Source: Patescibacteria group bacterium (GTDB lineage: Bacteria; Patescibacteriota; Minisyncoccia; CAIUEV01; JAHKAQ01). Taken from it: a stretch of DNA of 64,000 nucleotides. How positions within the stretch are numbered: position 1 is the stretch's first letter; each line of letters begins with the position of its first letter. Below are positions 21,633 through 58,736 of this stretch, piece after piece. The translations under genes were made by a program, and so were the position numbers. The notes under the pieces are model-generated. The model had not been told where the DNA came from and searched no databases. It saw only the letters and a list, made by a program, of their open reading frames with translations. Location: NCBI GenBank assembly GCA_034716235.1, contig JAYEHH010000032.1, forward strand, positions 370 to 64,369. Direction: 5' to 3'.

Positions 21633-21664
<32 letters not shown>

Positions 21665-21679
21665 TTGGCGAACAGCCAA

Positions 21680-21726
<47 letters not shown>

Positions 21727-22091: not shown

Positions 22092-22363
22092 AAGGTTAGA
22101 ACTACACGATTCACAGGGTGGTATTTCACTGATGACTCCATCTATCCCAAAGGATAAATCTCAAAGTCTCCCACCTATACTGAGCAATAAATTGTATAGA
22201 TCAATGTCAAGCTGTAGTAAAGCTCCACGGGGTCTTTCCGTCTTTCCATAGGCAAACGGCATCTTTACCGCTACTGCAATTTCACCGGGTCCTTCGTTGA
22301 GACAGTCTCCAAGTCGTTACCCCATTCGTGCAGGTCTGAACTTACCAGACAAGGAAATTCGCT

Positions 22364-22716: not shown

Positions 22717-22896
22717 ACCTTAGAACAATTATAGTTATTGCTGACGTTCACCGGGGCTTCAGAGATTGGCGTTAACCGCTCTCGTTAACCTTCCGGCACT
22801 GGTCAGGGGTCAGCCCCTATACATCCCCTTACGGGTTAGCAGGGACCTATGTTTTTGATAAACAGTCGCCCGGAGTCTTTAGCTGTGGCCGACGAA

Positions 22897-23229: not shown

Positions 23230-24453
23230 CTGTCGGCAGGCCTTATCCCGAAGTTACGGCCGCTATTTTGCCGAGTTCCTTAACGAAGGTTCTCCCGTTC
23301 ACCTTGGGCTACTCGCCCTACCCACCTGTGTTGGTTTAAGTACGGATTAAACCTAAATATTTTCACAAAGCTTTTCCAGGAAGTCTATTCGCTCGAATCT
23401 GTTCCACTTGCGTTTCACATTTTTCCGCACCTTTTAAAAAGATGAAGAAACGTCAAACCATTAAGACGCTCAAGTTAGCTGACTTCGCACTTTGCTACAA
23501 CTTAGATTTAAGTCAAGGAATATTAACCTTGTGCCCATCGACTACGCTTTTCAGCCTCGCCTTAGGACCGACTAACCCTGGGCTGATTATCATCGCCCAG
23601 GAAACCTCAGGTTTTTGGTGGAAAGGAATCTAACCTTTCTTGCGGTTACTCATACCAACATTCTCTCTTCCATTAGCTCCACTAAAACTCACATTTTAGC
23701 TTCACAGCGCATGGAATGTTCTCCTACCCCGCCATACTCTAAAAAGAATATGACAGCCATAGTTTCGGTACTATGTTTGAGCCCCATTATATCTTCGGCG
23801 CGGAACGACTAGACTAGTGAGCTGTTACGCACTCTTTAAAGGAATGGCTGCTTCTAAGCCAACCTTCTAGCTGTTTAAGAAGTTCTACATCCTTTTCCAC
23901 TTAACATAGATTAGGGACCTTAACTAATGGTCTGGGCTGTTTCCCTTTCGTAAATGAAGCTTAGCCCCCACTTACTGACTCGTTAGACTTGTATATTGGA
24001 ATTCGGAGTTTGGTTGAGTGCCCTAGACAAAAGTCATGGATACTCATTCAGTGCTCTACCTCCAATACCAACTATCTAACGGCTATACCTAGATATATTT
24101 CGGAGAAAACCAGCTATCGCCGAGTTCGATTAGCATTTCACCTCTAACCACAGCTCATCCCAGCGTGTTGAACGGCGCTTGGGTGCGGACCTCCACCGCT
24201 TTTTAAGGCGGCTTCATCCTGGCCATGGCTAGCTCACTCGGCTTCGGGTCTGACCCTAACGACAGGGGGCGCCACTTAAGACTCGCTTTCGCTGCGGCTC
24301 TTCCGCCTAGACGGATTAACCAAGCCGTTAAAATCAACTCGTTGGTTCGTTCTGCAAAAAGCACGCGGTCACCGGCTCAAAAAAAACTTGAGCGGGCTCC
24401 CACTCGTTGTAAGCACACGGTTTCAGAAACTATTTCACTTCCCTTTCGGGATA

Positions 24454-24495
<42 letters not shown>

Positions 24496-25309
24496 AAAGT
24501 GTATTTAGTCTTACCGGGTTAGTACCGGCAAATTCACCTGGAATTTCTCTAGTTCCAGGCTACTCAAGATAAAATAACTCAGAGTGATTAATTGTTTTCG
24601 CCTACAGGACTTTTACCTTCTAAGGTAAGCCTTTCCAGGCATTTTTGGCTAACAACTAATGCTTTTTACTCTGCCAATACTAAAAGTTGTAAAAGCACAA
24701 TAAAATTATACTTTTACAATTTCAGTTCGGACGCTATTGAACTTATTACCCTCAGTAAAAACTGAGTTTGGACTTTTCCCCGTTCGCTCGCCGCTACTTA
24801 GGGAATAACTATTGTTGTTTTTTCCTTCGGCTACTAAGATGTTTCAATTCGCCGAGTATGCTTTTTACTCCTATGTATTCAGAGTAAAATTCTATTCAAA
24901 AATGAATAGAGGGTTTCCCCATTCGGAAATTCCCGGATCAAAGCTTGCTTGACAGCTCCCCGAGACTTTTCGCAGCCTGCTACGCCCTTCATCGCCACTT
25001 TGTACCAAGGCATCCACCATATGCTCTTATAACCACAATTTATTAGTGTTTTTAGCTAATTCACAAAGATTATTTGTAAATTAATTGCAATCACTTAAAT
25101 ACCATTTTGCCTAATAATTGTTTTTAACCACAATCTCCAAACAACTATTATTAAAATAAATTGTTAAAGTCCATTATGTGGCCTAAAAGGTAGTTTTTAA
25201 AAATAAAAACCGCTTTTCAAGCCGCTAATTCTTTAAAATAAATTAGACCCAAAAACTAGCCAAGGAACAGCTCTTAATAAATTCTCAATAAAATAATACT
25301 ATAAAAATT

Positions 25310-27353: not shown

Positions 27354-27393
27354 AATTTTCAATTTTCAATTCACAATTTACAATTAAGGAATA
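27354..27393 (-). repeat. 40-nt AT-rich word module tattccttaattgNaaattgtgaattgaaaattgaaaatt upstream of atpD
   Basis: Its reverse complement matches 56306-56345 at 39/40 positions, in the same orientation relative to the downstream gene (atpD here, valS there). Confidence 0.7.
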
Positions 27394-27403
27394 TCTTTTT
27401 TAC

Positions 27404-45047: not shown

Positions 45048-45157
45048 AGTTCATAAAGTTTGTAAAGTTCGTAAAGTTTTCAGGGTTAAGAATAGCGAGA
45101 TAAAGACTTGATAACTTTATAAACTTTACAGACTTTTCACTTTCTAACTTTATAACC
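45040..45157. repeat. palindromic array of 9-nt words (gttcataaa x2, gtttgtaaa, gttcgtaaa ... inverted aactttata/aactttaca words)
   Basis: The 9-nt period was read directly from the sequence. The first unit supplies the last codons and the TAA stop of the Clp-like gene, and TAA then recurs in frame every third codon. The right arm is the inverted complement and ends 4 nt before the tsaD GTG. Confidence 0.7.
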
Positions 45158-45161
45158 TCTC

Positions 45162-46238
45162 GTGAATATCTTATCCATCGAAACATCTTGTGATGAAACT
45201 GCTTTCGCTATTGGAGCCGTGCAAAACGGTCATTTTAAGCTTTTAGCAAACACCGTCTCATCTCAAGTCAAAGTTCATCAAAAATTCGGTGGTGTGGTTC
45301 CTAATTTATCTGCCAGAGAACACTTAAAAAATTTCAAGCCACTGCTAGATAAAACATTGACTCAAGCTGGTATTCCCCTCAAAGAAATTGATTGTTTTAG
45401 TGTTGCTCCCGGTCCGGGACTTATTCCGGCTCTTTTAGTAGGAACATCTATCGCTAAAACTTTAGCCTTTTATCATCAGAAACCCTTAGTTCCCATTCAT
45501 CATTTAGAAGGACACACTTACGCTACTTGGCTAAAGAAAAATGGAGAGTTGAGAGATGACATTGCTTTTCCCGCTTTGGTTTTAATAGTTTCCGGAGGAC
45601 ATACCCAACTAATGCTGATGCAAGACCATTTGCATTACGAAATACTCGGCAGAACTTTGGACGATGCAGTTGGAGAAGCTTTTGACAAAGTGGCTAGAAT
45701 TTTAGAATTAGGTTACCCCGGAGGTCCTTTGATTGAAAAAATAGCTCAAAAAGGTAATCCAGAAAAGTTTCAACTTCCTAGACCGATGATCAATTCTGAT
45801 AATTTAGATTTTAGTTTCTCGGGATTAAAAACTGCCGTCCTTTATGTCGTGAAAGAATATCTTGAGAAAAAGGAAATGGTCCCGACCGCTGATATGGCCG
45901 CTTCTTTTGAGCAAGCCGTTGTTGATACCTTAATAGCCAAAACGCAAAAAGCGGTTAATACTTACAACCCTCAGTCATTAATTTTGGCAGGAGGAGTAGC
46001 TGCTAATACAAAAATAAGGGAAGCTTTTATTGAAATTGCTCAGAAACGAAACAAAGCAAAAGAATACTCAAATTACTATCCCCTACAAGCTTACGTCCCA
46101 GAATTAAAATTCTGCGGTGACAACGCTGCCATGCAATTACCGGCAGTATTTTTTAGATTAGAAAAGTATGGGAAGAAGAAGTATCGGGAGGGGTGGAGAG
46201 ATGTGGAGGCTGAGGCTAATTGGGGGCTCAGTTCATAA
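45162..46238 (+). CDS. tsaD: tRNA N6-adenosine threonylcarbamoyltransferase
   Basis: 358 aa. It has the N-terminal ILSIETSCDETA, HHLEGH and GGVAAN motifs of TsaD/Kae1. The start codon is GTG. Confidence 0.92.
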   Translation: MNILSIETSCDETAFAIGAVQNGHFKLLANTVSSQVKVHQKFGGVVPNLSAREHLKNFKPLLDKTLTQAGIPLKEIDCFSVAPGPGLIPALLVGTSIAKTLAFYHQKPLVPIHHLEGHTYATWLKKNGELRDDIAFPALVLIVSGGHTQLMLMQDHLHYEILGRTLDDAVGEAFDKVARILELGYPGGPLIEKIAQKGNPEKFQLPRPMINSDNLDFSFSGLKTAVLYVVKEYLEKKEMVPTADMAASFEQAVVDTLIAKTQKAVNTYNPQSLILAGGVAANTKIREAFIEIAQKRNKAKEYSNYYPLQAYVPELKFCGDNAAMQLPAVFFRLEKYGKKKYREGWRDVEAEANWGLSS

Positions 46239-46443
46239 AGTTGAAAAGTTTAGATAATTGATAATTGACAATGGATAATTGATAATTAATGAATAATGAA
46301 TATCTTAAATAATTTTTCACCCAGAGGGTGATCCGCCTTCGGCGAGACAAGCCAGCCAGCCTCGCCGAGTCTAGGCGGGCCTCTGGCTGGCAATTAAGGA
46401 ATACTTTATAAACTTTACGAACCTTCTAACTTAACCATGAAGG
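46239..46443. repeat. mosaic repeat block at the left island flank (cataaagtt words, gataattga words, GC-rich core 46317-46391, ctttataaactttacgaacc words)
   Basis: The GC-rich core tcacccagagggtgatccgccttcggcgagacaagccagccagcc is the reverse complement of 1235-1279. The word arrays match those at 1280-1330, 45040-45157 and 56137-56160. Confidence 0.65.
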
Positions 46444-46516
46444 CTTTATTAAATGGGTGGGAAGTGGTTTAATAAAAAGAGATAGAGAATAAGAATTATA
46501 TAATTAATTACTTATA
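46444..46516 (+). repeat. island direct repeat, full unit A (73 nt)
   Basis: ctttattaaatgggtgggaagtggtttaataaaaagagatagagaataagaattatataattaattacttata is ~80% identical by eye to 55963-56037. It ends 9 nt before the ATG at 46526. Confidence 0.75.
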
Positions 46517-46525
46517 TTTAAAATT

Positions 46526-48343
46526 ATGCCAAATTATTTCGTCAATCAAAGAAATATTAGTGCGTTACTTCAAAACATTAAGGACGAAGATATTGTAATC
46601 CCAGAAATTCAGAGACCTTTTGTTTGGGAGAGTAAAAAAGTTCGTAATCTTATGGACTCATTGTATCAGGAATTTCCAATAGGTTATATTATTACATGGA
46701 AAAATCCAAATATAAGACTAAAAAATGGAAGAATGAGCGAGGGAAAACAAGTTATAATAGATGGACAACAAAGAATTACCGCTTTAATGGCTGCGATCTT
46801 GGGACGAGAAATTATAGACAAAGAGTATCAAAAAAAGAGGATTCGGATTTCCTTTAATCCATTGAAAGAAAAGTTTGAAACATTAACTCCTGTTATTGAA
46901 AAAAATAGTGAATGGATAAGCGATATTTCAGAATTTTTTAAAACTAGAAATAATATTTTTAATTTTACTGCTAATTTTTGTAAAAAAAATAATTTTACCG
47001 AAAAACAAAAAATCAAGACTCAGCAAAGTCTAACAAAATTACTAAACATGGAGGATAAGTTTATTGGAATTATTGAGCTTGATGCAAATTTAGATATTGA
47101 TGATGTAACGGAAATATTTGTTAGAATTAATGATGCTGGGACTCCCCTTTCACAAGCAGATTTTGCAATGAGTAAAATTGCCTCATACGAACCAACATCA
47201 GACCATTTGTTTGGAGTGAATTTAAGAAAGTCTATTGATTATTTTGCTCATCTATCTCAAACACCACATTTTCTTGAAGATATTGGAAGAAACGATAAAG
47301 AGTTTAGCCGAACAGAATATTTGCTAAAAATGAAATGGGCCGGGAAGGAATTGGATAATATATATAATCCAAACTATAAGGATATTTTAAGAGTAAGTTT
47401 CATTAAGGAATTTAATAGAGGGAAAATTAGCGATCTTGTGAAGCTTTTATCTGGACAAAATTTTAAAACAAGAAATTATGATCAAAAAATACAAGAGAAA
47501 TCATTCTTGGCTTTAAAAAATGGAGTCCTTGACTTTATAAATGAAAATCATTTTAAGAAATTCCTTATTATTTTACAATCAGCTGGAATTATTGATTCAA
47601 AACTTATTAATTCACAGAGCGTTCTAAATTTTGCCTATATTGTCTATTTAAAACTTAGAAAAGATGGAATGGCAAATAATTTAATTGGGAAATATACAAA
47701 AAAATGGCTTGTTCTTTCAATTTTGACTGAAAGATATTCAGCCTCACCAGAATCTACGATGGATAAGGATATTAAAGATATTAATAAATATGGAATTAAA
47801 AAAGTTATTGCAAAGATTGAAGAGGCGGACATGTCATCAACTTATTGGAATATTGGACTTGTACAAAATTTAAACAGGGCGATAATTTCAAGCCCATTTT
47901 TAAGCCTCTTTTTTATAGCACAGATATGCTCTAAGGATAAAGCTTTATTCTCCGAATCGGTTTTAATCGATCAACTCGTTAGCATAAAAGGAGACGTCCA
48001 TCATATTTTCCCCAAAAATTATCTTCAAAAAGCAGGGTTTGGAATAAGTAAATATAATCAAATTGCAAATTTTGTTTATTTACAACAAGAAGTAAATATA
48101 ACAATAGGAGATAAACCACCAGGACAATATTTTAGCCGAGCATTGAATCAATGTGATAATAAAACTTTGGATAGTGGAAGTATTGGAGAAATTACAGACA
48201 AGAAAAAATTGATAAAAAATTTAGAAATAAATTCTATCCCAACTGATATTTTTGAAATGGATATTACTAATTATGATGAATTTTTAGAAAAAAGACGGAA
48301 ATTAATGGCAAAGAAAATTGAAAAGTTTTATAAAAGTTTATAG
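46526..48343 (+). CDS. GmrSD-type modification-dependent (type IV) restriction enzyme, DUF262 + DUF1524
   Basis: 605 aa. The N-terminal DUF262 has IPEIQRPFVW, EFPIGYII and IIDGQQRITAL. The C-terminal His-Me/HNH-like DUF1524 has GDVHHIFPKNYL...NFVYLQQEVNITIGDK. Confidence 0.8.
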   Translation: MPNYFVNQRNISALLQNIKDEDIVIPEIQRPFVWESKKVRNLMDSLYQEFPIGYIITWKNPNIRLKNGRMSEGKQVIIDGQQRITALMAAILGREIIDKEYQKKRIRISFNPLKEKFETLTPVIEKNSEWISDISEFFKTRNNIFNFTANFCKKNNFTEKQKIKTQQSLTKLLNMEDKFIGIIELDANLDIDDVTEIFVRINDAGTPLSQADFAMSKIASYEPTSDHLFGVNLRKSIDYFAHLSQTPHFLEDIGRNDKEFSRTEYLLKMKWAGKELDNIYNPNYKDILRVSFIKEFNRGKISDLVKLLSGQNFKTRNYDQKIQEKSFLALKNGVLDFINENHFKKFLIILQSAGIIDSKLINSQSVLNFAYIVYLKLRKDGMANNLIGKYTKKWLVLSILTERYSASPESTMDKDIKDINKYGIKKVIAKIEEADMSSTYWNIGLVQNLNRAIISSPFLSLFFIAQICSKDKALFSESVLIDQLVSIKGDVHHIFPKNYLQKAGFGISKYNQIANFVYLQQEVNITIGDKPPGQYFSRALNQCDNKTLDSGSIGEITDKKKLIKNLEINSIPTDIFEMDITNYDEFLEKRRKLMAKKIEKFYKSL

Positions 48344-48375
48344 TAATAATTTTCTAATCAGAGAGCAGAAAGCTC

Positions 48376-48777
48376 TTACTCCTTATCAGGCAATCTATCA
48401 TCTTTTTTTCTTTGATAATAAGTATTCTTATTTAAACATCTGTTTATAATATTTTCCATGTGCCAATAAGTGTAATTGCCATATCTAAAATAAATCTGTT
48501 TTGTTTTGTAAAAATAATCCTCGTATCCTGACTGGTCAATGTAATTAGCAAGCTCTAAGTATAATTTGTTATCAACTTTTTCTTGGACAATATATTCATG
48601 GGGCCATGTTTTAGCATAAGTTTTTGCAGGCGTCCAATTAGAATTTTTAATAAATAATTTTAAATTATTGGGGAGTAGTACTCTATCAAACATCGCCTTT
48701 ATTTTTTTACTATGAAGAAATATTAAAACCTTTTTGATTGTAGCTATAGTATTGTTGATTACTTTAGTTTCATCCAT
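48376..48777 (-). CDS. hypothetical protein (WTPAKTY..WPHEYIV motif)
   Basis: 133-aa ORF convergent with the GmrSD gene. It is rich in aromatic residues (YFYKTKQIYFRYGNYTYWHM). No family could be named. Confidence 0.45.
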   Translation of the reverse strand: MDETKVINNTIATIKKVLIFLHSKKIKAMFDRVLLPNNLKLFIKNSNWTPAKTYAKTWPHEYIVQEKVDNKLYLELANYIDQSGYEDYFYKTKQIYFRYGNYTYWHMENIINRCLNKNTYYQRKKDDRLPDKE

Positions 48778-48927
48778 GCTGAATCTAAAGTGGATTCCAT
48801 AAGTTGCATATTCTTTTAATCAAAAATACATTATTTATTTCAATAAGTATAGTAAGTTATAATTTAAAATAGCTGAACAGAATTCTTAATTTATAATCTA
48901 GAATTTGTAATCTAAAATCTCTCAAGA

Positions 48928-48965
48928 CTTGATTAAATGGGTAGAAAGTGGCTTAATGGGGAGGA
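48928..48965 (+). repeat. island repeat, left half-unit B (38 nt), possible promoter TTGATT-17nt-CTTAAT
   Basis: cttgattaaatgggtagaaagtggcttaatggggagg is identical to the first 37-38 nt of unit C (55963-56000). It lies 131 nt upstream of the McrB start. Confidence 0.7.
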
Positions 48966-49095
48966 GAATTGCATGGTTAATTGGTTATCAATGAAAATGC
49001 TATAAAGTTTTTATTAAGATTATAATTAAGAGAATAATTCAGGTAGGGTTTTTTGCAAAAATTAATGTGCTTTTTAATTATTTTATATAAATTCA

Positions 49096-52014
49096 ATGAG
49101 AGTTAATATCAAGGAAATCAGGAGAATAATTAAATCTGATGTTATTAAGCCTAGAATTGAAGAATATTTACAGAAAAGAAAAAGTGGAGACGAGCAGCAA
49201 TGGAACGAGGAATATAAATGGGATCCAAAAATATTGCCTGCAACACATAAGGAATTTATCAAGGAAAGAGACATTCTTAAAAAAATTGAAATTCTTCAAA
49301 AAAATAATCCAAACGAAGGATCCTTTGTGAGTTATATGGACTTGGACGATCTCAATAAATTTGCTAAGGAAAAAACAAAGCAAGCCACAAAGTTGATGGA
49401 AAACTTATTGAATGGAAAAAAGAATATTGCTAAACGCATTGATTATTTTAGGGATGAGACGAAAAAAGTGGATGAAAAAATTAAATTAGGAACACCCTTA
49501 TTTGGTTACATTATGGCGGTATTCAATTCCAGTAAATATCCAACTTATAAAAATTCAACCTTTATGGCTCTCAAAAAGCTCATTGGAAAAAGACAAGAAT
49601 GGAGTTCTATGAGTGTTGGCGAGAAATATCAAACATTTACTGACCTGTGCCATGAAATGGGCAAATTGCTGAAGCCAGAACTTGAAACTGTAAATATCAG
49701 AGGTATTGAGGTCAAGCCAGGAAGGACTGCTCTGGATGGTCAAGACTTTTTCTATATTCTTGAAGATCGTTATAATAGAGAGAGATATTTCCCCGAACTT
49801 GTTAAATTTCTTGAACAAGCCAAGGCAAGCAATCTTACAACAAAGCAATACCGAAAGGATTATATGAATTGTAAAGTGAGGATAAGTTTTGGAAAAGTAA
49901 GCTCTGCACAAACACCCTGGATTAGTTTTTTATCCGGTGACAATAAATTACAGAAGGGAATTTATCCAGTCTTTCTTTTTTATAAAAGTATAAATAAATT
50001 ATTTCTAGCATATGGTATAAGTGAAATAAGTGAACCCGAACAAATTTGGAACATTGTTGGAAAAGAAACAATTGAAGATTATTTTATTGAAAATTTCAAC
50101 TCGGAGCCAGAGAGATATGGCAGTTCTTATGTTTATAAAGTATACGATGTGAAAAACATTGATAATTTAAATCAAGAACAAATGGAAAATGACTTGAAAA
50201 ACATAATTAATGAATATAAAAAACAACTTGAAGAAACTCCAAAAATTCAATACTGGACAATTTCTCCGGGGGAAGATGCAAAGCACTGGGAGGAGTTCTA
50301 TCAAAAAGGGATCATTGGAGTCGGCTGGGATAAAACAAAAGATCTCTTACAATATAAAAATAAAAAAGAAATTCAAAAGGTTGCGAAAAACTTATTTGGA
50401 TTAAAAACTAATGCCAGCAATACTGCCCAAGCTTGTTTGGATTTTTCTAGAACAATGAGAATTGGGGATATTTTAATTGTCAAAAAGGGAATTCATGAAT
50501 TGGTCGGCTATGGAAAGGTAACTTCAGATTATATTTATGATGCAAGGAGGAAGACATATAAACACATACGAAATGTGATGTGGATTAAAAAGGGAAATTG
50601 GAAGATAGATAAAGAGATTATTCATCCTGCATTAAAAACTTTAACTAACATAACTCCGTATGAAGGTTATGCCCAAGAATTATTGGGCATAATGGACGAA
50701 AGTAATATTGATGGAAAAAATTACTGGTGGATTAATGCAAATCCAAAAATTTGGAATTTAACAGAGGCGGAAGTCGGTTCCAAACAAATATATACAAGCC
50801 ATAATGAGGCCAAGAATCCCAGAAGAATTTATAGTTATTTTAAAGAGGTTAAGCCGGGCGACATTATGTTTGGATATATAACAAGTCCTGACAAACAAAT
50901 TACTTCAATATGCAAAATAACCAAAGGGTTATATGAGAACAAAGAGGGGGAAGTGATTGAATTTGAAAAAACTGAGACTTTACAAAATCCAATTTTGTGG
51001 AATGAATTGAAAAATGAAGAAAGTTTGAAAAATTGCGAACCAATTAAGAACAATCAAGGAAGTTTGTTTAAAATAAGCAAAGAAGAATATGAAACCATTA
51101 GATATTTGATTGATGAGAAAAATATTTTCACGAAAGAAAAAATTGAAAAATATATAAAAAAGGATGCTCTAGACAAATTATTTATTTCAGAAAATGAATT
51201 TGATAATATAGCCCAAAATATTGAAAGAAACAAAAATATCATTCTGCAAGGCCCTCCCGGAGTTGGCAAAACTTTTCTTGCAAAAAGGTTGGCTTATTAT
51301 TTGATTGGATACAAAGACGTAAACAAGGTACAATCTATCCAATTTCATCAATCATATTCATATGAAGATTTCATGCAAGGTTACAGGCCCAATGAAAAAG
51401 GAAAATTTGATCTTGTTAATGGAATATTTTTCAGATTTTGTCAGAAAGCTAAAAATGATCCAAACAATAAGTATTTCTTCTTGATAGATGAAATAAATAG
51501 AGGAAATCTGAGCAAAATTTTTGGTGAATTAATGATGCTTATTGAAAAAGATAAACGGGGTAAAGATTTTGCTATACCTTTAACATATTCCCAAGATGAC
51601 AGAGAAACATTTTATGTGCCAGAAAATGTTCATTTGATTGGGACTATGAACACAGCTGATAAATCACTTGCGATGGTAGACTATGCTTTGCGAAGAAGAT
51701 TTAATTTTATTTTTCTGAAACCAAAATTTAATAACAGCTTTAGTTCATTCCTAGAAAATATGGGAGTTAAAAAGATTATTATTAAAGCGATAGTTGAAAA
51801 AATAAGCAAACTAAATGAGATGATAATTAATGATGATAATAATCTTGGAAAAGGATATCAAATTGGTCATAGTTTTTTCTGTCCTCAGAGAAAAAGTAAA
51901 TATGACGAAGAATGGTTTAAGAATATTGTCAAATACGAAATTGAACCATTGCTCGAGGAGTATTGGTTTGATAGTGAGAAAAAATTTAATGAAGCGAAGA
52001 ATTTATTAAACTGA
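49096..52014 (+). CDS. mcrB: McrB-family AAA+ GTPase with extended N-terminal sensor region (DUF3578/MrcB_N-like + PUA-like + EVE-like)
   Basis: 972 aa. The AAA+ core spans aa ~700-900 (ILQGPPGVGKTF, FFLIDEINRGNLSKIFGELMMLIE, LIGTMNTADKSLAMVDYALRRRF). aa ~255-310 (KVRISFGKVSSAQTPWISFLSGDNKLQKGIYPVFLFY) resembles DUF3578. aa ~384-505 (YWTISPGE..W..F...GIIGVGW...MRIGDILIVKKG..LVGYGKV) and aa ~541-675 (YWWINANPKIW...VKPGDIMFGYITSP...QGSLFKISKEEY) look like EVE/PUA-type barrels. Confidence 0.8.
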   Translation: MRVNIKEIRRIIKSDVIKPRIEEYLQKRKSGDEQQWNEEYKWDPKILPATHKEFIKERDILKKIEILQKNNPNEGSFVSYMDLDDLNKFAKEKTKQATKLMENLLNGKKNIAKRIDYFRDETKKVDEKIKLGTPLFGYIMAVFNSSKYPTYKNSTFMALKKLIGKRQEWSSMSVGEKYQTFTDLCHEMGKLLKPELETVNIRGIEVKPGRTALDGQDFFYILEDRYNRERYFPELVKFLEQAKASNLTTKQYRKDYMNCKVRISFGKVSSAQTPWISFLSGDNKLQKGIYPVFLFYKSINKLFLAYGISEISEPEQIWNIVGKETIEDYFIENFNSEPERYGSSYVYKVYDVKNIDNLNQEQMENDLKNIINEYKKQLEETPKIQYWTISPGEDAKHWEEFYQKGIIGVGWDKTKDLLQYKNKKEIQKVAKNLFGLKTNASNTAQACLDFSRTMRIGDILIVKKGIHELVGYGKVTSDYIYDARRKTYKHIRNVMWIKKGNWKIDKEIIHPALKTLTNITPYEGYAQELLGIMDESNIDGKNYWWINANPKIWNLTEAEVGSKQIYTSHNEAKNPRRIYSYFKEVKPGDIMFGYITSPDKQITSICKITKGLYENKEGEVIEFEKTETLQNPILWNELKNEESLKNCEPIKNNQGSLFKISKEEYETIRYLIDEKNIFTKEKIEKYIKKDALDKLFISENEFDNIAQNIERNKNIILQGPPGVGKTFLAKRLAYYLIGYKDVNKVQSIQFHQSYSYEDFMQGYRPNEKGKFDLVNGIFFRFCQKAKNDPNNKYFFLIDEINRGNLSKIFGELMMLIEKDKRGKDFAIPLTYSQDDRETFYVPENVHLIGTMNTADKSLAMVDYALRRRFNFIFLKPKFNNSFSSFLENMGVKKIIIKAIVEKISKLNEMIINDDNNLGKGYQIGHSFFCPQRKSKYDEEWFKNIVKYEIEPLLEEYWFDSEKKFNEAKNLLN

Positions 52015-52019
52015 TTTTT

Positions 52020-53057
52020 ATGGAGATACCTATAATAAATATATATTACCTACTTTGTTATGCTTGGGATAAACTTGAAGAAAAAGATGTTGTTAACGTA
52101 AAAGAAGAAGATCACACTAAGTTACTTGATCTTTTTGCAAAGATATTAATTAACGGAATGAATCATCTAATCAGGAAAGGATTGGACAGAAATTACATTG
52201 ATATCAAAGAAGATTCAAAGAGAATTAAGGGAAAGATTAATTTCAATGAAACACTGAAAAGGAACTTGTTGGTACGATGTGAAATTAGTTGCGAATTCGA
52301 CGATTTTAGTTACAACATTCTTCACAACAGAATTATTAAAACAGTGATTGGAGGATTAGTTAGAAATGATGAGGTGGATCAGGAGCTGAGGGACGAATTG
52401 AATAAAATCTATCGATTATTGAAAGAGATTGATGAGATAAGGCTTTCCTCAAAAATATTTAATGCTGTAAAATTAAACAGAAATAATTACTTTTATGATT
52501 TTCTGATCAAGGTATGTAGGCTGATATATGAAAATTATTTAATCACGGAAGAAACGGGCAAGGGGAAATTTAGAGATTTTATAAGAGACGAAGTAAAAAT
52601 GAGAATGCTCTTCGAAGATTTTGTTAGGAATTTTTATAGAAAAGAACAAAACGAATTTTCTGTAACAAGGGAATTGATTGCATGGAATGTTAAGGCTGAG
52701 AATGATGAAGATATGAGTTATATGCCGAGAATGGAAACCGATATATCGCTAAAATCAAAAAGTAAAAAAATAATAGTTGATACAAAATATTATAAAGAGG
52801 CCATTAAGGGTCAATATAAGAATAAAGAAAAGTTAATATCCAATAATTTATATCAAATGTTTGCCTACATAAATAATATAGAAAACAAAGGAGGTCTAAA
52901 TAAAAAATGTACTGGAATATTACTTTACCCAACAGTTAAAAAAGATTTGGATTTAAAATATAAAATACCAAATCATAACTTACAAATTAAAACAATAAAT
53001 CTAAATCAAGAATGGAAAAAAATTCATAAAGACTTATTAAGTGTAATTATGACTTGA
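52020..53057 (+). CDS. mcrC: McrC-family nuclease subunit
   Basis: 345 aa, starting 5 nt after mcrB. The N-terminal YLLCYAWDKLEE and the C-terminal PD-(D/E)xK-like METDISL...IIVDTKYYK are typical of McrC. Confidence 0.8.
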   Translation: MEIPIINIYYLLCYAWDKLEEKDVVNVKEEDHTKLLDLFAKILINGMNHLIRKGLDRNYIDIKEDSKRIKGKINFNETLKRNLLVRCEISCEFDDFSYNILHNRIIKTVIGGLVRNDEVDQELRDELNKIYRLLKEIDEIRLSSKIFNAVKLNRNNYFYDFLIKVCRLIYENYLITEETGKGKFRDFIRDEVKMRMLFEDFVRNFYRKEQNEFSVTRELIAWNVKAENDEDMSYMPRMETDISLKSKSKKIIVDTKYYKEAIKGQYKNKEKLISNNLYQMFAYINNIENKGGLNKKCTGILLYPTVKKDLDLKYKIPNHNLQIKTINLNQEWKKIHKDLLSVIMT

Positions 53058-53131
53058 AAATCCCTATGTTTATAAATTTTAAAAACAATTTAGAATAGAA
53101 GATAATCATCTATTTATATTTATATAACCCA

Positions 53132-54349
53132 ATGCAACAATTTTCTCATTCAAAATTACAAACCTATGAAAGATGTCCCCTGCAATATAAGCTCCAATAC
53201 CTCACCAATCTAAAGCCGGAGCAGGAAGAGACAATAGAAGCCTTTGTGGGTAGCCGGGTCCATGAGACTCTGGAACTTCTTTATCGTGATCTACTGCGAA
53301 CAAAACTAAATTCTTTAGCTGATCTTTTAAAGTTCTATGATAAAATTTGGAGAGTAAACTGGAGCAATGACATAGTTATCAATAATAAAGAATTTAAAAA
53401 GAAACATTACTTTGATCTTGGAAAAAAATGTATTAAAAATTATTATGAAAAATATAGCCCTTTTGATCAGGATCAAACAATTGGAATTGAGAAGAGGATT
53501 AATTTACAATGGGGAGACATTGGAATAGTGGGATACATTGACCGTTTAGCTAGAGACAGCCAGGGTATTTATTCTATCCATGATTATAAAACGGGTGCCA
53601 TCATGGAACAGAAGTACGCAGATCAAGATCGTCAGCTAGCCTTGTATTCAATTGCCGTTAAGGAAAACTTTAGAGAGGCCAAAGAGGTAAGGTTAATTTG
53701 GCATTTTGTAGCTTATGGCGAAGATGTTATCTCGAAACGGACAAATAAGGAATTGGCTAAGCTAAAAAATGAAATGCTGTCCCTTATTGAAGAAATTAAT
53801 CTTGCAGAAAAAGAAGATAATTTTCCAGCCAAAGAAACTAAATGTGAATGGTGCGGATATTGGCAGTATTGCCCAAAGAAAAAGCATTTATTCAAAACAG
53901 AAAAACTTCCAAAAAATAAATACCTACAAGATAGTGGAGTAAAACTAGCAAAAAAGTATATTAATTTATCACAACAAAGAACTGTCATAAACAAACGAGC
54001 TAAAACTAAGGGGGAAATAATTAAGCAAGAAATGCTAAAGATTCAAGAAGCTATCCTAAAATATACCCAGAAACATAAAATAGATGTCTTGGCGGGAGAA
54101 AAAATGCTTGTAGCTATTAATAAGAGTAAGAACTATACCTTCCCTACAAAAACTACTGACATTGAAAAATACACTGAATTGGAAAATTTATTGAAAAAAA
54201 GTAAGTACTGGAACGGTGTATCTTCCGTCAATGCCCAAAAAGTTAGTCAATTATTGGAAGATGATGGGATTGACAGTAGATTAAAGCAGAAAATTATTGC
54301 CCTTGCTCCACTTGAAGAATCTACTAACTTATCAATCAGAAAAAAGTAA
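53132..54349 (+). CDS. Cas4/AddB-like PD-(D/E)XK nuclease with Fe-S Cys cluster and ~150-aa C-terminal extension
   Basis: 405 aa. Motifs: FSHSKLQTYERCPLQYKLQY (Cys15), GYIDRLARD (D137), IHDYKTG (D151-x-K153), QLALY (QxxxY) and CEWCGYWQYC (C238, C241, C247). Confidence 0.75.
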   Translation: MQQFSHSKLQTYERCPLQYKLQYLTNLKPEQEETIEAFVGSRVHETLELLYRDLLRTKLNSLADLLKFYDKIWRVNWSNDIVINNKEFKKKHYFDLGKKCIKNYYEKYSPFDQDQTIGIEKRINLQWGDIGIVGYIDRLARDSQGIYSIHDYKTGAIMEQKYADQDRQLALYSIAVKENFREAKEVRLIWHFVAYGEDVISKRTNKELAKLKNEMLSLIEEINLAEKEDNFPAKETKCEWCGYWQYCPKKKHLFKTEKLPKNKYLQDSGVKLAKKYINLSQQRTVINKRAKTKGEIIKQEMLKIQEAILKYTQKHKIDVLAGEKMLVAINKSKNYTFPTKTTDIEKYTELENLLKKSKYWNGVSSVNAQKVSQLLEDDGIDSRLKQKIIALAPLEESTNLSIRKK

Positions 54350-54910
54350 ATGGAGCTTCTAGAGAAAACCATCAAGCATATAGAAAAAAAGAAAAGGGAT
54401 AATTCTAATAAAAAAGAGCTATTGGCAAACAACAGACATCCTAAATCTGCCCATTATTATAAAAAGGAATGGTCATTTATTGAGTTTGTACCAGCTAGAG
54501 AAAATATTACCTATCAGTTACAGTATTTAGAGTATATGACCAATTTATACAATGACTACCAAATGTATTTAACGATTGAATCTTTACATTGCAAGAACAT
54601 GATGATTACCATTGCCTCAATAATGGAATGTGCCCTCTATGACCTCTTGTATCAGTTAGCCAGAAAAAGGTCAGATATTGGTTTTGATGAAAGAGAAGAT
54701 TTTTTAGCAATGATTGATTTAGGGTTTCGGGGAGGTTTACTTAATGAACAAATGAAAAATTTGCTACATGAGCTTCGGAAAGTTAGAAATTTTGTGCATA
54801 TTTCTAATTTGGAGCATAAAGAATACGAAGCTTATGATATTGAGCAAGTAAACAACTATATTATACTTTTAGATAATTTTAAGGATAGAGTTAGGGAGAA
54901 GATTAAATGA
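54350..54910 (+). CDS. hypothetical helical protein, possible HEPN-like (LLHELRKVRNFVH)
   Basis: 186 aa. Its ATG abuts the TAA of the nuclease gene (aagTAAATGgag). R143-x6-H150 fits the Rx4-6H HEPN motif. The family call is tentative. Confidence 0.5.
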   Translation: MELLEKTIKHIEKKKRDNSNKKELLANNRHPKSAHYYKKEWSFIEFVPARENITYQLQYLEYMTNLYNDYQMYLTIESLHCKNMMITIASIMECALYDLLYQLARKRSDIGFDEREDFLAMIDLGFRGGLLNEQMKNLLHELRKVRNFVHISNLEHKEYEAYDIEQVNNYIILLDNFKDRVREKIK

Positions 54911-54950
54911 AAATAATTAGGGTTATACTCCCCTGCTGCATTCTTTCTTA

Positions 54951-54977
54951 AAAGAATTACGTAATTAATTACTTACC
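54951..54977 (+). repeat. island repeat, right half-unit D (27 nt) with palindrome AATTACGTAATT
   Basis: aaagaattacgtaattaattacttacc is identical to 56011-56037. It lies 55 nt upstream of the ATG at 55032. Confidence 0.7.
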
Positions 54978-55031
54978 AGTAACCCCACTTCCAAAAACAA
55001 TTCTAAAATAACATAGATTAATAGAATCTGA

Positions 55032-55922
55032 ATGCCTCCAAAACCTAAAAAAATAGATGTTGATGTTAATGATTTTTTCAGAAGAATTGTTAGATTAAAA
55101 AAGAAAAAGAAATTTGCAAATTTCTTAAAATTTATTAAACGAGTACCAAAACAATCCCCTTTAAATGACTCTCTCGTATTCATTCAAAATTGTAATTGTT
55201 TTTATTATGCAACAGCTAAGCAATGGAAGAATAAATTTGGAAGAAAAGTAAAAGATGATGCGCAACCATTGATCGTATTAGTTCCATTTGGTCCCGTTAT
55301 GTTCGTATATGATATTAAGGATACCAAGGGAAAATCTCTAGATAAAAAAAATTTGTTTTGGTGGAAAGAAAAAGAAGGATATTTTCACGAAAGTATTTAT
55401 TTGAACACAGCCAATAACTGTAAGAATGTTGGGATAGATTATCGTATTGGTAAAAAAGAACAGTATATATTTAAAGAGGGTCTACAGACTTTCGGATATG
55501 CTGGAAAAAATATAAATAATAACTTACGTAAAATTGAACTACATCCTAAATATCAAAATGGAATCAATATAAAAGAAACTTATGGAGTATTATGCCATGA
55601 GTTGGCTCATCATTTGCTTGGGCATTTGGGAGAAATAAAAATTGAGATACCAGTGCAGATGAGTTTATTTTCATCTAAGGTCAACGTCCGTCACAAAAAA
55701 ATAGCTCCGAGTGGTAGAGAGTCTATTGATGATAATATTAAAGAGCTTGAAGCCGAATTAACTGCTTGGATAGTATTTTCCTGTTGGGGTATGGAAAAAA
55801 ACTCAGAAGCATACATGGCAAATTGGCTGATAGATAGCAATGATGCAAAAGAAATAAACTATCCCTTAGTTTTTAAGGTAGCTGGAACGATTAAGCGAAT
55901 GGCGCTCGGTAAAATTGCGTAA
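55032..55922 (+). CDS. HExxH zinc metallopeptidase-like protein, ArdC-like or ImmA/IrrE-like (tentative)
   Basis: 296 aa. CHELAHHLLGH is a metallopeptidase motif. The N-terminal YYATAKQWKNKFGRKVKDDAQPLIVLVP resembles the ArdC_N/DUF1738 ssDNA-binding pattern (TfkQw..lGr.VkKGeK). Confidence 0.5.
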   Translation: MPPKPKKIDVDVNDFFRRIVRLKKKKKFANFLKFIKRVPKQSPLNDSLVFIQNCNCFYYATAKQWKNKFGRKVKDDAQPLIVLVPFGPVMFVYDIKDTKGKSLDKKNLFWWKEKEGYFHESIYLNTANNCKNVGIDYRIGKKEQYIFKEGLQTFGYAGKNINNNLRKIELHPKYQNGINIKETYGVLCHELAHHLLGHLGEIKIEIPVQMSLFSSKVNVRHKKIAPSGRESIDDNIKELEAELTAWIVFSCWGMEKNSEAYMANWLIDSNDAKEINYPLVFKVAGTIKRMALGKIA

Positions 55923-55962
55923 AGAAATATATCAGTACAATTATCCCAAACATACTATTTGG

Positions 55963-56037
55963 CTTGATTAAATGGGTAGAAAGTGGCTTAATGGGGAGGG
56001 AAATAGAGAAAAAGAATTACGTAATTAATTACTTACC
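55963..56037 (+). repeat. island direct repeat, full unit C (75 nt)
   Basis: The unit is cttgattaaatgggtagaaagtggcttaatggggagggaaatagagaaaaagaattacgtaattaattacttacc. See units A, B and D. Confidence 0.75.
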
Positions 56038-56136
56038 ACCACTAAAACAATAATCTATTCAAAATAATAATTCAAAATAATAATTCAAAATACCTACAGG
56101 ACTGGAAAAATATAGTTGCTAATGCTAATCTAAAAC

Positions 56137-56346
56137 TAAGTTCGTAAAGTATAACTTCTAACGTTTCGTCTAGGCGTCCCGGGATTTCCGTCCGGCATGC
56201 GCCAGATTACATTTTCCTGCCTACCGGCAGGCAGGAAGCTTTAGCGAAGACTGGTCATCCCCTGGATGAAAAATTGAAAATTAGAAATTGAAAATTATAA
56301 TAAAGTATTCCTTAATTGAAAATTGTGAATTGAAAATTGAAAATTC
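56137..56346. repeat. mosaic repeat block at the right island flank (cgtaaagt words, GC-rich core 56168-56268, AT-rich aattgaaaatt words)
   Basis: gtctaggcgtcccgggatttcc...ttttcctgcctaccggcaggcagg matches 1167-1215. The segment 56306-56345 matches the atpD-upstream module at 39/40 positions. Confidence 0.65.
56274..56301 (+). promoter_or_regulatory. putative valS promoter TTGAAA-16nt-TATAAT inside the repeat block
   Basis: The sequence reads aaaTTGAAAattagaaattgaaaatTATAATaaag, ~50 nt upstream of the ATG at 56352. Confidence 0.35.
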
Positions 56347-56351
56347 TCTTT

Positions 56352-58736
56352 ATGTCCAAACTTCTCACCGAAAAATATAACTTTGAGCGAATAGAAAACC
56401 AATGGAAAAAATTCTGGGAGGATAAACAATTATTTAAGTTTCGCTACAACAACCAGAAACCATTCTTTGTTGTGGACACTCCTCCCCCTTATGTTTCAGC
56501 CGATCATCTGCATGCCGGCCATATCATGTCTTATGCTCAAGCCGAATTTATTGTGCGCTACAAAAGAATGCGGGGCTATAATGTCTTCTACCCAATGGGC
56601 TTTGACGACAATGGCTTACCCACCGAGAGATTTGTAGAAAAGAAATATAATCTAAATAAGGGCAAAATAAAACGCTCAGAATTTATTAAAATTTGTTTGA
56701 AAGAGACTAAAAAGGGTTCCCTGGCTTACAAAAAGTTATGGAACGATTTAGGAATTTCAGTTGATTGGAGCAAAACTTACAGCACCATTAGCCCCTTGGC
56801 TGTAAAAGTTTCTCAGCGATCAATTATCGATCTCTATAAAAAGAAAGCTCTTTATAGAGGTGAATCTCCAATTTTATGGTGCCCTTCCTGTCGAACAGCT
56901 ATCGCTCAAGCCGATCTAGAAGACGTAGAAATAGAATCTCAAATGAATTACCTAAAATTCAAATCTGGCAAGAAAGGCTTAATCATAGCTACAACCAGAC
57001 CAGAGCTTCTTCCTGCTTGCGTAGCTCTCTATATTAATCCTGGAGATAAACGATATACCAACCTAGTAGGCAAGAAAGCGCAGGTACCACTTTTTAAACG
57101 TTCCGTTCCCATAAAAACAAGCTCGGAAGTGGTTATGGATAAAGGCACTGGAATAATGATGGTTTGCACTTGGGGTGATCAAGAAGATTTAGCTAAATGG
57201 AAAACCGATAAATTAGACACTCGACATATCTTAGAACAAGACGGTCGATTAAATAAATTGGGTGGCAAATATCAGGGATTGAAAATAAAAGTTGCTCGTC
57301 AGCAAATTATTGATGATCTTAAAAAGGGTGATTATTTGATTAAGCAAGAATCAATTAAGCATTCCGTGAATGTTCATGAAAGATGTGGCACTCCTGTAGA
57401 ATTGATTCCCAGCAAGCAATGGTTTATTAGAATTATCAATTTAAAAAAGAAATGGTTGGAATATAAAGATAAATTAAATTGGCATCCGGCTAGAATGGCC
57501 AAAGATTATCAGATGTGGGTGGATTCTCTAAAATGGGACTGGTGTGTCTCAAGACAGCGTTATTACGGGGTCCCCTTCCCCCTTTGGTATTGTGCTAAAT
57601 GCAAAACTCCAATTTTTGCTACCGAAAAAGATTTGCCGGTCAATCCTATAGAAGAAGCTCCTTCAATTAAAAAATGTCCTAAATGTGGTCACACTAAATT
57701 TGAACCAGAAACCGATGTTCTAGATACATGGGCAACTTCTTCCTGCACCCCTTTCCTCCTAAAAGAATTAGTTAGAGATGAAAAAGTAAAAGAAAAACTT
57801 TTTCCAGCTACTTTAAGGCCAAACGCTTTTGAAATTATAAGAACTTGGGACTTTTATTCAATTGTTAAAAGCCACTATCATTTTGGCAAATTACCCTTTA
57901 AAAATATTATGATTTCCGGACATGGGCAGGATGAGCAGGGAAGAAAATTTTCCAAAAGATTAAACAATTACGACCCTTCTGATAAATTACTTAAAAATTG
58001 GGGGGCGGATGCTATTAGATATTGGGCTACTGGATCTTCTTTGGGACAAAATTTACGATTTAACCCTAAAGAAGTTAAAAAAGGTAAAAGAACTACCACT
58101 AAGCTTTGGAATGTAGGTAGATTTTTAGCAATTAATTCCGAGGATTCTACTTTAAAAAACATTAAAACCGCTACTACTCTAGAATATGCTGACATTTGGA
58201 TTATTGAGGAATTAAATAAAACAATTCAGCAAGTAACTGAAGCTTTTGAAAATTATGCTTACGCTAAAGCCAAAAACGAGTTAGATTCTTTTTTCTGGTC
58301 TAAATTAGCCGATTATTACATTGAATTTATCAAATATCGTCTTAATGGTGACAAAAAAGAGTCCCGAGATATGGCTCAAACTACTCTTTCCACCGTCTTC
58401 CTGTCTGTTTTAAAAATGTATGCTCCCCTCCTACCTTTTATAACTGAAGAGATCTACCAAGATTTATTTAAAAAAACCGAAGCCAGGGAGAGCATTCATA
58501 TTAGCGATTGGCCTAAAATTATAAAAATTAAAACATCCACCGATATTAAAGATTTTCAAGAAGCTCTAGATGCCATTAACGAAATCAGAAAGTACAAGAC
58601 TACTCAGGGAATATCTTTAGGATTTGAGTTAGAAGAATACTCCTTAAAGACCAAAGTTAACCTTCCCAAATATCAAGAACTCATTAAAAATGCCATTAAG
58701 GTAAAACAATTATTGCCCGAAATTAAAAGTTCTTGA
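56352..58736 (+). CDS. valS: valine--tRNA ligase (archaeal-type, short)
   Basis: The track ORF starts at a TTG (56337) inside the repeat, so the ATG at 56352 (MSKLLTEKYNF...) is preferred. Motifs: PPPYVSADHLHAGH (HIGH region), ATTRPELLPACVALYINPGDKRY and GTGIMMVCTWGDQED (ValRS-type editing domain), and KFSKRL (KMSKS). Confidence 0.75.
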   Translation: MSKLLTEKYNFERIENQWKKFWEDKQLFKFRYNNQKPFFVVDTPPPYVSADHLHAGHIMSYAQAEFIVRYKRMRGYNVFYPMGFDDNGLPTERFVEKKYNLNKGKIKRSEFIKICLKETKKGSLAYKKLWNDLGISVDWSKTYSTISPLAVKVSQRSIIDLYKKKALYRGESPILWCPSCRTAIAQADLEDVEIESQMNYLKFKSGKKGLIIATTRPELLPACVALYINPGDKRYTNLVGKKAQVPLFKRSVPIKTSSEVVMDKGTGIMMVCTWGDQEDLAKWKTDKLDTRHILEQDGRLNKLGGKYQGLKIKVARQQIIDDLKKGDYLIKQESIKHSVNVHERCGTPVELIPSKQWFIRIINLKKKWLEYKDKLNWHPARMAKDYQMWVDSLKWDWCVSRQRYYGVPFPLWYCAKCKTPIFATEKDLPVNPIEEAPSIKKCPKCGHTKFEPETDVLDTWATSSCTPFLLKELVRDEKVKEKLFPATLRPNAFEIIRTWDFYSIVKSHYHFGKLPFKNIMISGHGQDEQGRKFSKRLNNYDPSDKLLKNWGADAIRYWATGSSLGQNLRFNPKEVKKGKRTTTKLWNVGRFLAINSEDSTLKNIKTATTLEYADIWIIEELNKTIQQVTEAFENYAYAKAKNELDSFFWSKLADYYIEFIKYRLNGDKKESRDMAQTTLSTVFLSVLKMYAPLLPFITEEIYQDLFKKTEARESIHISDWPKIIKIKTSTDIKDFQEALDAINEIRKYKTTQGISLGFELEEYSLKTKVNLPKYQELIKNAIKVKQLLPEIKSS

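Follow-up and report, generated by a model that had tools for sequence, protein, structure and literature searches.

A Putative Promoter/Operator Module Heads Defence Cassettes at a Variable tsaD-valS Locus in Patescibacteria

Introduction

Why should a short non-coding repeat recur within a restriction/anti-restriction island, each time upstream of a plus-strand gene? The question is raised by a 64,000-nucleotide stretch of DNA from a Patescibacteria group bacterium (assembly GCA_034716235.1, contig JAYEHH010000032.1, positions 370 to 64,369 of the forward strand), hereafter called the window, with positions counted from its first letter. In the window, seven open reading frames (ORFs) stand between tsaD and valS and are accompanied by full and partial copies of one repeat unit. 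The initial annotation, made from the letters alone, left two readings side by side, an att-like or hot-spot sequence that captures cassettes and a portable promoter/operator module, and it is the second that fits best. With somewhat better than even confidence, we propose a hot spot of recombination whose cassettes are headed by a portable promoter/operator module, the promoter activity of the module and the binding of a regulator to it being deduced from sequence.

To our knowledge, almost nothing has been established by experiment on how members of the Candidate Phyla Radiation (CPR) regulate their genes. The island itself is an ordinary object, namely a defence hot spot between core genes. 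Novelty lies in the composite make-up of the module, in the way it is concentrated at defence cassettes, and in the pairing of a strictly conserved dyad with an AbrB/MazE-fold protein that occurs across the CPR; a search of the literature for the motif string and for AbrB regulons of the CPR found no description of them.

The Repeat Unit as a Composite Module

The repeats are real and far above chance. The left 37 nt of the unit (CTTGATTAAATGGGTAGAAAGTGGCTTAATGGGGAGG) occur exactly twice in the window, at 48928-48964 and 55963-55999, as do the right 29 nt (AAAAGAATTACGTAATTAATTACTTACCA), at 54950-54978 and 56010-56038, and neither was seen in any of 100 shuffles. All four repeat segments listed in the initial annotation are present, and its estimate by eye of ~80% identity between the outer units agrees with the alignment, in which unit A and the copy of unit C in locus L002, identical to unit C of the window, share 80.8% over 78 columns (L followed by a number labels the comparison loci and contigs).

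When 10 copies of the unit from seven sources are aligned, two near-invariant blocks stand out around a variable spacer. The module is ~60-76 bp long, non-coding, and located upstream of plus-strand genes; it begins with an L-box, continues with a purine-rich spacer of variable length and sequence, and ends with (A)AAAGAAT and an R-box. The near-invariant L-box covers 30 bp (CTTTATTAAATGGGTGGAAAGTGGTTTAAT; consensus CTTkATTAAATGGGnnGAAAGTGGyTTAAT) and resembles a pair of -35/-10 hexamers spaced by 17 nt, with a TG upstream. The R-box (TACGTAATTAATTACTTAC) is half of a 32-bp dyad in which the hexamers TACGTA and ATTAAT, each a palindrome, alternate. MraZ/AbrB-type TGG repeats were also considered in the L-box; their spacing is irregular, and they remain a lead only.

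It had been supposed that a third full unit was split by a 6-kb insertion, its halves being the copies at 48928 and 54950. Neither half of this proposal survives. The copy at 48928 (unit B) has a right half of its own, since GGGGAGG is followed there by AGAATT GCATGGTTAATTGGTTAT, 16/24 identical to AGAATT ACGTAATTAATTACTTAC of the short-form unit, which is also found in L058, and an intact unit occupies the same place in L011. By this alignment, unit B is a complete short-form unit whose R-box has decayed. The copy at 54950 is a free-standing R-box that heads a different cassette in L014. Units B and C share three derived L-box bases (TTGATT, GTAGAAAG, GGCTTAAT); the consensus base is kept at all three positions in unit A, L081 (two copies), L089, L097, and L113, and at most of them in L058 and L027. 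Such sharing speaks for recent propagation or gene conversion.

The full L+R module is rarer than the R-box alone. Among the fetched loci, L-box matches were confined to the population of the window, L058, and L027, to which five real metagenome contigs must be added (L081, L089, L097, L098, and L113); the degenerate L-box scan of metagenomes that gave the latter returned 37 matches, the others being 27 of one repeated stretch read as coding and five unrelated ones. L+R heads a type I restriction-modification (R-M) set in L097 (HsdR, Schlafen/AlbA_2, HsdM-S, UvrD), Cas12a in L058, a Cas4-like nuclease in L027, PDC-S11 in L011, HKD-SNF2 with a type IIG enzyme in L002, and, in L113, an AbrB-like gene itself, while one copy in L081 precedes an 88-aa ORF without a Pfam match; the L089 copy and the other one of L081 do not enter this tally. 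Where the downstream gene is known, then, the composite heads only defence or accessory genes and the AbrB regulator gene. In L098 an L-box that lacks an R-box is followed by a 151-aa ORF and by an SNF2 helicase; in L039 the contig breaks off within a unit that lies before an AbrB-like gene. Elsewhere, two or more units form arrays in L081, L058, L113, and L002.

The L058 locus deserves a separate remark. At 4965-7999, in a metagenome-assembled genome (MAG) of the CPR, a short-form L+R lies 79 nt upstream of a Cas12a-like gene (REC1, RuvC_1), and 2.5 kb upstream of that gene an R-box heads a PDC-S11 homologue.

The R-Box and AbrB-Like Genes

The R-box has a much wider distribution. Its 19-mer was found in 73 stretches of GTDB species-representative genomes, nearly all of them Moranbacteria, Parcubacteria, and other CPR MAGs, with multiple copies within a single genome in several cases, and the sites are intergenic with two exceptions. 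Some are perfect 32-nt palindromes (GTAAGTAATTAATTACGTAATTAATTACTTAC), and over 75 sites the arm that was not selected by the search mirrors the selected one. In many cases the R-box lies 0-50 nt from a start codon. In other genomes it is found 0-81 nt from the starts of genes for ATP synthase c, RmlD, dCTP deaminase, a PF00953 family 4 glycosyltransferase, EngB, ribosomal protein S9, GAPDH, RNase J, and thioredoxin, 10 nt upstream of a tRNA-Lys cluster, and also upstream of defence genes. Taken by itself, the right half is thus no attachment site peculiar to the island. Scans of viral sequences gave one match each.

Most striking is the company that the dyad keeps with genes of AbrB/MazE-fold proteins of 58-60 aa (PF04014). 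It stands directly upstream of every one of the 13 examined; the 18-nt core (AATTACGTAATTAATTAC) lies 4-24 nt before the ATG in all 13 and is exact in 12, beside coding sequences that share a mean nucleotide identity of 61% (range 47-76%). Both orientations of the 19-mer are used upstream of these genes, and this, together with the dyad symmetry, points to a dimeric DNA-binding protein. We infer that the dyad is the operator of an AbrB-type regulator. Loci fetched by protein rather than by motif likewise carry R-like sites just upstream of AbrB-like genes and nowhere else, L135 being the only one of them fully independent of the earlier loci. The family comprises ~3,559 clusters at E up to 1e-5, and its hosts, among the matches listed and named, are Moranbacteria, Parcubacteria, Patescibacteria, or similar. 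The AbrB-like genes have no conserved toxin partner behind them; their downstream neighbours are RadC, Fic, DNA methyltransferases, and others.

In other CPR genomes, AbrB-like genes with an R-box often head operons of the R-M type (L125-L134; L136-L138). One such operon consists of the AbrB-like gene, a 165-aa ORF, an N6/N4 methylase, a 166-aa ORF, and a ResIII helicase, and another of the AbrB-like gene, Fic, RhuM-Fic, a second AbrB gene, a methylase, and MutH.

Could the R-box instead be a general expression or architectural signal, such as part of a strong promoter or a site for a nucleoid protein, the units being strong promoters that have propagated? Its position before many highly expressed housekeeping genes and a tRNA cluster, often within 50 nt of the start codon, would suit such a role, and the unit fits the published definition of a putative mobile promoter (PMC3488235). 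Against this, direct reading of the R-box finds no TAnnnT hexamer in it, and the symmetry and double orientation at the AbrB genes suggest a dimeric protein as the ligand. R-like sites with up to 4 mismatches are, moreover, limited in the window to the island and to positions 938-957, which is too scarce for a general promoter, and the 13/13 association with one small regulator family would be left unexplained. We regard this alternative as unlikely, albeit one to be taken seriously.

The R-like dyad at 938-957 (TACGTAATAAATTACGTAA, 3 mismatches) lies ~28 nt upstream of what reads as a small minus-strand ORF starting near 910. Two high-GC Actinomadura genomes also hold the exact AT-rich 19-mer (L022 6138-6156 and L030 7802-7820), in L022 ~26 nt before a likely transporter operon on the minus strand, whose two genes were read as encoding a DUF485-like membrane protein and a solute symporter; these occurrences, though unexpected, are probably sites of an unrelated regulator.

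Cassette Exchange between tsaD and valS

Comparison of strains shows where the content of the island changes. In L001 and L011, TsaD and a further 78 nt are identical to the window, up to position 46316, after which the sequences diverge; there, tsaD is followed by an R-box, a MutH-like gene, a minus-strand N6/N4 methylase, a weak L-box, and a full unit. L011, which belongs to the same population, is also identical to the window over the 139 nt upstream of the unit-B site and then carries an intact long-form unit, a PDC-S11 gene, and the same PD-(D/E)XK gene as the window. By this arrangement, McrBC and PDC-S11 are alternative cassettes at one site, and the left junction of the swap falls within the unit.

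Further breaks coincide with the R-box. In L014, the R-box of 54950 is followed not by the ArdC-like gene but by a 286-aa ORF (no Pfam match), an EcoRI-type methylase, and a GmrSD_N-HNH gene, identity with the window stopping at 54976, the last base of the R-box. Identity with L002 stops at the same base of the R-box: unit C precedes valS in the window, and in L002 it precedes HKD-SNF2, a type IIG gene, an RNase H-like gene, and a 135-aa ORF, a run that ends in an R-box and an apparent AbrB-like pseudogene. Copies of unit C are 100% identical over 74-76 nt before valS (window), HKD-SNF2 (L002), and PDC-S11 (L011). The short-read contigs L003 and L004 stop inside unit C, and L004 begins at an R-box; as a caution, such units break short-read assemblies.

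More distant relatives vary as well. An exact R-box lies ~90 nt after tsaD in L120 (TsaD 70% identical). In L121 (TsaD 58% identical) the flanks are kept (SecA, UvrA, x, ClpB, TsaD ... ValRS, HSP20, VanW, PMT), and the interval between tsaD and the gene of valyl-tRNA synthetase (ValRS) holds GlmS, CofD, and an LbH protein, with no R-box. These differences among strains and relatives make the tsaD-valS locus a variable hot spot. An att site specific to the island is contradicted by the core genes that the R-box precedes elsewhere. The initial annotation would have abandoned the island as a repeat-defined entity had the unit preceded many unrelated core genes and had relatives carried the same seven genes: the right half alone does precede such genes, but close relatives lack this gene set, so that the refutation, taken as a whole, fails. 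Exact protein look-ups of ValRS with two alternative starts gave no record, and the junction between unit C and valS, seen in the window contig alone, is without independent support. The contigs of L011 (JAYEHE010000174.1) and L002 (JAYEHE010000357.1) are filed in the Candidatus Zixiibacteriota MAG GCA_034659415.1, probably by mis-binning; the NCBI entries identical to TsaD and to the ArdC-like protein bear the label Patescibacteria group bacterium.

The same breaks invite the idea that the unit or the R-box is an att-like site, at which a recombinase encoded elsewhere captures and excises defence cassettes as in an integron. Units do lie in direct orientation between co-oriented cassettes and form arrays in four other loci, the identical 74-76-nt units have at least two left and at least three right contexts, identity breaks at the same R-box base in three comparisons, and the R-box is a dyad, as are the core sites of recombinases. 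However, the island, its 8-kb syntenic flanks, and the other unit-bearing loci showed no tyrosine or serine recombinase and no transposase, in line with the initial annotation, which had noted the lack of an integrase, a transposase, or a tRNA and is borne out by Pfam on the island ORFs (no recombinase domain) and by a tRNA scan of the window (no tRNA). Nor does the unit have an attC-like single-strand fold (DNA z +1.15, no covarying pairs); the R-box alone stands before ATP synthase c, S9, GAPDH, EngB, RNase J, and a tRNA cluster elsewhere; and one McrBC/PDC-S11 junction lies outside any unit. An att site of this kind is accordingly improbable. A broader version, in which the L+R units are recombination sites for defence-cassette exchange, either with a recombinase acting in trans or with none, each cassette bringing along its own operator under an AbrB-type master regulator shared by the whole lineage, is also a long shot. 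If true, it would mean that defence content and expression are governed by one short DNA module, an analogue of integrons in bacteria that have none.

Fold and Ends of the Unit

The unit shows no structure when its folding is compared with shuffled sequences (RNA z +1.04; DNA -1.7 kcal/mol, z +1.15), and none of the 12 predicted pairs covaries in the unit alignment. In the absence of single-strand structure and covariation, it most likely acts as duplex DNA. A structured RNA (5' leader, riboswitch, or small RNA) or a micro-peptide encoded by the unit is thus very improbable, even though the unit lies in the 5' region of genes, the ATG of the L-box opens short ORFs of 10-22 codons when the sequence is read directly, and a hairpin of -11.8 kcal/mol is possible for the perfect 32-nt dyad. 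The R-box copies of the island barely fold (-1.1 and -4.2 kcal/mol), a search of positions 45000-57500 against Rfam at E up to 1 gave nothing relevant, nor did an Rfam scan of the whole window within the island, and the short ORF is not conserved, its L058 copy stopping after two codons. The micro-peptide was rejected for this reason, and a terminator role of the island R-box copies because they barely fold. The consensus scan for promoters and terminators was uninformative in this AT-rich DNA (64 sites vs 55.5 expected).

Hardly credible, finally, is a miniature transposable element or an assembly artefact that mis-joined strains, as could be suspected from the sharp boundaries of the copies, the short-read contigs broken at units, and the unit C-valS junction confined to the window contig, because inspection of the aligned copies found neither terminal inverted repeats nor target-site duplications, independent assemblies reproduce 46190-53303 (L117, GCA_034723125.1, at 99.8%) and 49091-55992 (L003), and both flanks are syntenic with a relative.

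Weighing the Promoter/Operator Reading

According to the portable-module reading, the module would act as double-stranded regulatory DNA, with a promoter-like L-box and an R-box serving as operator for an AbrB-type regulator. The DUF262 gene, the McrBC block, and, through the R-box alone, the ArdC-like gene would be tied to this regulator, and the cassettes would be expressed and co-regulated from their own copies of the module. Near-identical copies before unrelated genes would, in addition, offer homology for general recombination, for example after DNA uptake, which could swap cassettes without any island-encoded recombinase; the failure to find a recombinase in the island, its flanks, or the other unit-bearing loci is counted in favour of this scheme.

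Several observations weigh against it. To begin with, the promoter and operator roles are both read from sequence. The TTGATT-17-CTTAAT promoter of the initial annotation fares poorly: the -10-like hexamer (TTTAAT/CTTAAT) departs from the consensus in having no A at position 2, and the promoter scan is silent there. Unit C lies 300 nt from valS, which has a better promoter-like site of its own, so that unit C may head nothing in this strain. An intact AbrB-like gene was not seen in the window, and the one AbrB-like copy seen in the population (L002 9474-9647, where the variant island of that strain ends) is interrupted by two in-frame stops. The search of genomes used exact 19-mers, which biases the sample to perfect sites. 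With regard to exchange, the right junction of the McrBC/PDC-S11 swap falls just upstream of the PD-(D/E)XK ATG, where there is no unit, so that units are not the only breakpoints; and since the conservation of the module ends at the edge of the R-box, a break there cannot by itself locate a crossover. As to the AbrB-like copy of L002, its TGA and TAA replace an R and a Q of the homologues, both of which would be C-to-T changes, and it is either a pseudogene or the product of a sequencing or assembly error.

Two consequences make the module worth pursuing. A 32-bp dyad that is exact beside coding sequence at ~61% nucleotide identity provides a concrete candidate for a global regulon, and the placement of the module before unrelated defence systems, at points of strain difference, suggests a simple way of turning over and co-regulating an anti-phage repertoire in ultra-small genomes.

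Features of the Locus

The coordinates of the features are collected in Table 1.

Table 1. Features of the tsaD-valS interval in window coordinates.
Feature	Position	Strand	Remarks
tsaD, conserved left flank	45162-46238	+	PF00814, E 5e-89; syntenic with relative L121
Intergenic, dispersed word repeats and GC-rich element	46239-46443	.	strain identity stops at 46316; same repeats at 1234-1364 and 45034-45129
Unit A: L-box, spacer, diverged R-box (TATATAATTAATTACTTAT)	46444-46517	+	8 nt before the ATG of the DUF262 gene
DUF262/GmrSD_N protein, 605 aa	46526-48343	+	PF03235, E 4.8e-33; PADLOC HEC-05, E 1.1e-29
133-aa ORF, convergent with the DUF262 gene	48376-48777	-	also in L117, L118
Unit B, short form: L-box (48928-48964), AGAATT, decayed R-box (GCATGGTTAATTGGTTAT)	48928-48988	+	
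McrB-like GTPase, 972 aa, MrcB_N + EVE + AAA_5	49096-52014	+	PF07728, E 5.8e-24; PF01878, E 2.8e-10
McrC	52020-53057	+	PF10117, E 1.6e-42
PD-(D/E)XK Cas4-like nuclease, 405 aa	53132-54349	+	PF12705, E 1.7e-32; PADLOC Cas4, E 1.5e-12
186-aa ORF	54350-54910	+	HEPN label unsupported
Free-standing R-box with AAAAGAAT prefix	54950-54978	+	53 nt upstream of the ArdC-like gene
ArdC-like protein, 296 aa, HExxH zincin motif	55032-55922	+	AlphaFold 2 model and Foldseek
Unit C: long-form L-box, purine-rich spacer, exact R-box	55963-56038	+	
Dispersed repeats and strong sigma-70-like site (56274-56301)	56039-56336	.	TTGAAA-16-TATAAT, 11/12 matches; repeats in common with 1190-1213 and 27354-27393
valS, right flank	56337-58736	+	PF00133, PF08264

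The initial annotation described the seven ORFs as a restriction/anti-restriction island without housekeeping genes, and Pfam and PADLOC agree with it. Defence-type genes cluster here by Pfam, PADLOC, and Foldseek, namely GmrSD_N, McrB, McrC, PDDEXK_1/Cas4-like, and ArdC-like ones. In the DUF262 protein, whose top PADLOC match is HEC-05, the GmrSD_N domain alone was detected, with no GmrSD C-terminal domain (DUF1524). McrB and McrC follow one another in adjacent genes (PF07728, PF10117), as is required of a type IV McrBC system. The McrB homologue is unusually long (972 aa) and has three regions ahead of the AAA_5 motor, one MrcB_N-like, one matched by PDC-S02 of PADLOC, and one EVE domain. 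No match in Pfam, PADLOC, or PDB was found for the 133-aa ORF and no significant one for the 186-aa ORF, for which the HEPN-like label was dropped.

The ArdC-like label of the 296-aa ORF fared better. An AlphaFold model based on 39 homologues (predicted local distance difference test 85.9) had as its sole strong Foldseek matches 6sna and 6i89, the ArdC of plasmid R388, over the full length and with probability 1.0, the TM-scores being low (0.31-0.40). Pfam identified MPTase-PolyVal in 14/39 of the homologues, M78 in 10/39, and ArdcN in 1/39, and in the query itself just a sub-threshold SprT-like match; H189, E190, and H193 are invariant among the homologues. The modelled protein thus appears to combine the N-terminal single-stranded DNA-binding domain and the C-terminal HExxH zincin protease expected of ArdC. 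Searches of PDB by sequence with the 133-, 186-, and 296-aa and the AbrB-like proteins were uninformative.

The gene of the right flank is taken to be valS because its product belongs to the class I aminoacyl-tRNA synthetases and its place corresponds to that of ValRS in L121, a protein with a Val_tRNA-synt_C domain. The window ValRS is only 30.5% identical to that of L121 (tblastn), compared with 53-68% for neighbouring orthologues, is shorter (799 vs 892 aa), and is without the Val_tRNA-synt_C domain; valS may be a xenologue replacement at the edge of the variable region.

The windowed GC content sets the island apart, with 0.25-0.34 over most of it (0.36 at 53.2-54.1 kb) and ~0.36-0.40 in the flanks. 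The GC-rich and word repeats reported from both flanks are real, though not island-specific, for they also occur at 1190-1364, 27354-27393, and 45034-45129. They belong to a dispersed intergenic repeat family (1060-1364, 27354-27399, 45034-45129, 46239-46443, and 56039-56345), which comprises GC-rich hairpin-like elements, such as GGTGATCCGCCTTCGGCGAGACAAGCCAGCC, found in both orientations, as well as tandem repeats of short words (GATAATTG, GAAAATTG, and GTTCATAAA), and is likewise present downstream of tsaD in the relatives L119 and L001. Elsewhere in the window, the 23S rRNA gene (21341-25040, minus strand), bacterial in type, extends over ~3.7 kb, compared with 2.9 kb for the model, and is interrupted by a group I intron of ~340 nt (22377-22717); the remaining ~430 extra bases suggest a further insertion.

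Comparison with Known Systems

The unit lacks the defining features of an integron, of a miniature inverted-repeat transposable element (MITE), and of a known RNA family; for a MITE or insertion sequence, inspection showed that its ends are not complementary and that no duplication flanks it. Its closest relatives among described systems share some of its properties and not others.

As in the defence hot spots of the E. coli pan-genome (PMC10121019), unrelated systems occupy one locus with conserved flanks, the content varies among strains of one population, and the GC content is below that of the flanks. According to that study, the defence cargo of E. coli is overwhelmingly carried on recognisable mobile elements; the present locus differs in having no integrase, transposase, tRNA, or phage gene and in the conserved non-coding module that punctuates its cassettes.

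Matus-Garcia, Nijveen and van Passel (2012, PMC3488235) defined putative mobile promoters as elements of 50-100 nt that precede unrelated genes and are at least 80% identical to one another. The unit resembles them in size, in identity of at least 80%, in the non-homologous genes downstream, and in its conservation across and within genomes. Unlike them, it has a separable and far commoner dyad half, the R-box, and is concentrated in a defence island, its own promoter activity being putative.

With integron arrays (IntI, attI, attC), the locus shares co-oriented cassettes, direct copies of a short element between them, and strain-variable content. In contrast to integrons, there is no IntI, the element is at the 5' end of the cassette and looks regulatory, no attC-type fold is formed, and one junction lies outside the element.

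The promoter of mazEF carries an alternating palindrome. Similarly, as for autoregulated proteins of the AbrB/MazE/SpoVT fold, a dyad of alternating hexamers lies here just upstream of the gene of a protein of the swapped-hairpin family (PF04014). AbrB of B. subtilis is associated with paired TGGNA motifs (PMC3025583). The present case departs from AbrB/MazE systems in that no conserved toxin partner is found and the R-box, a putative operator, is without TGGNA, the L-box being TGG-rich.

Finally, defence islands are known to have shared regulators, such as the WYL-type repressors BrxR/CapW and the C-proteins of R-M systems. Like their operators, the R-box is a palindromic putative operator upstream of defence operons and may co-ordinate their control, whereas the fold of its presumed regulator is a different one, the site is also found at housekeeping genes, and it has been copied before several unrelated systems.

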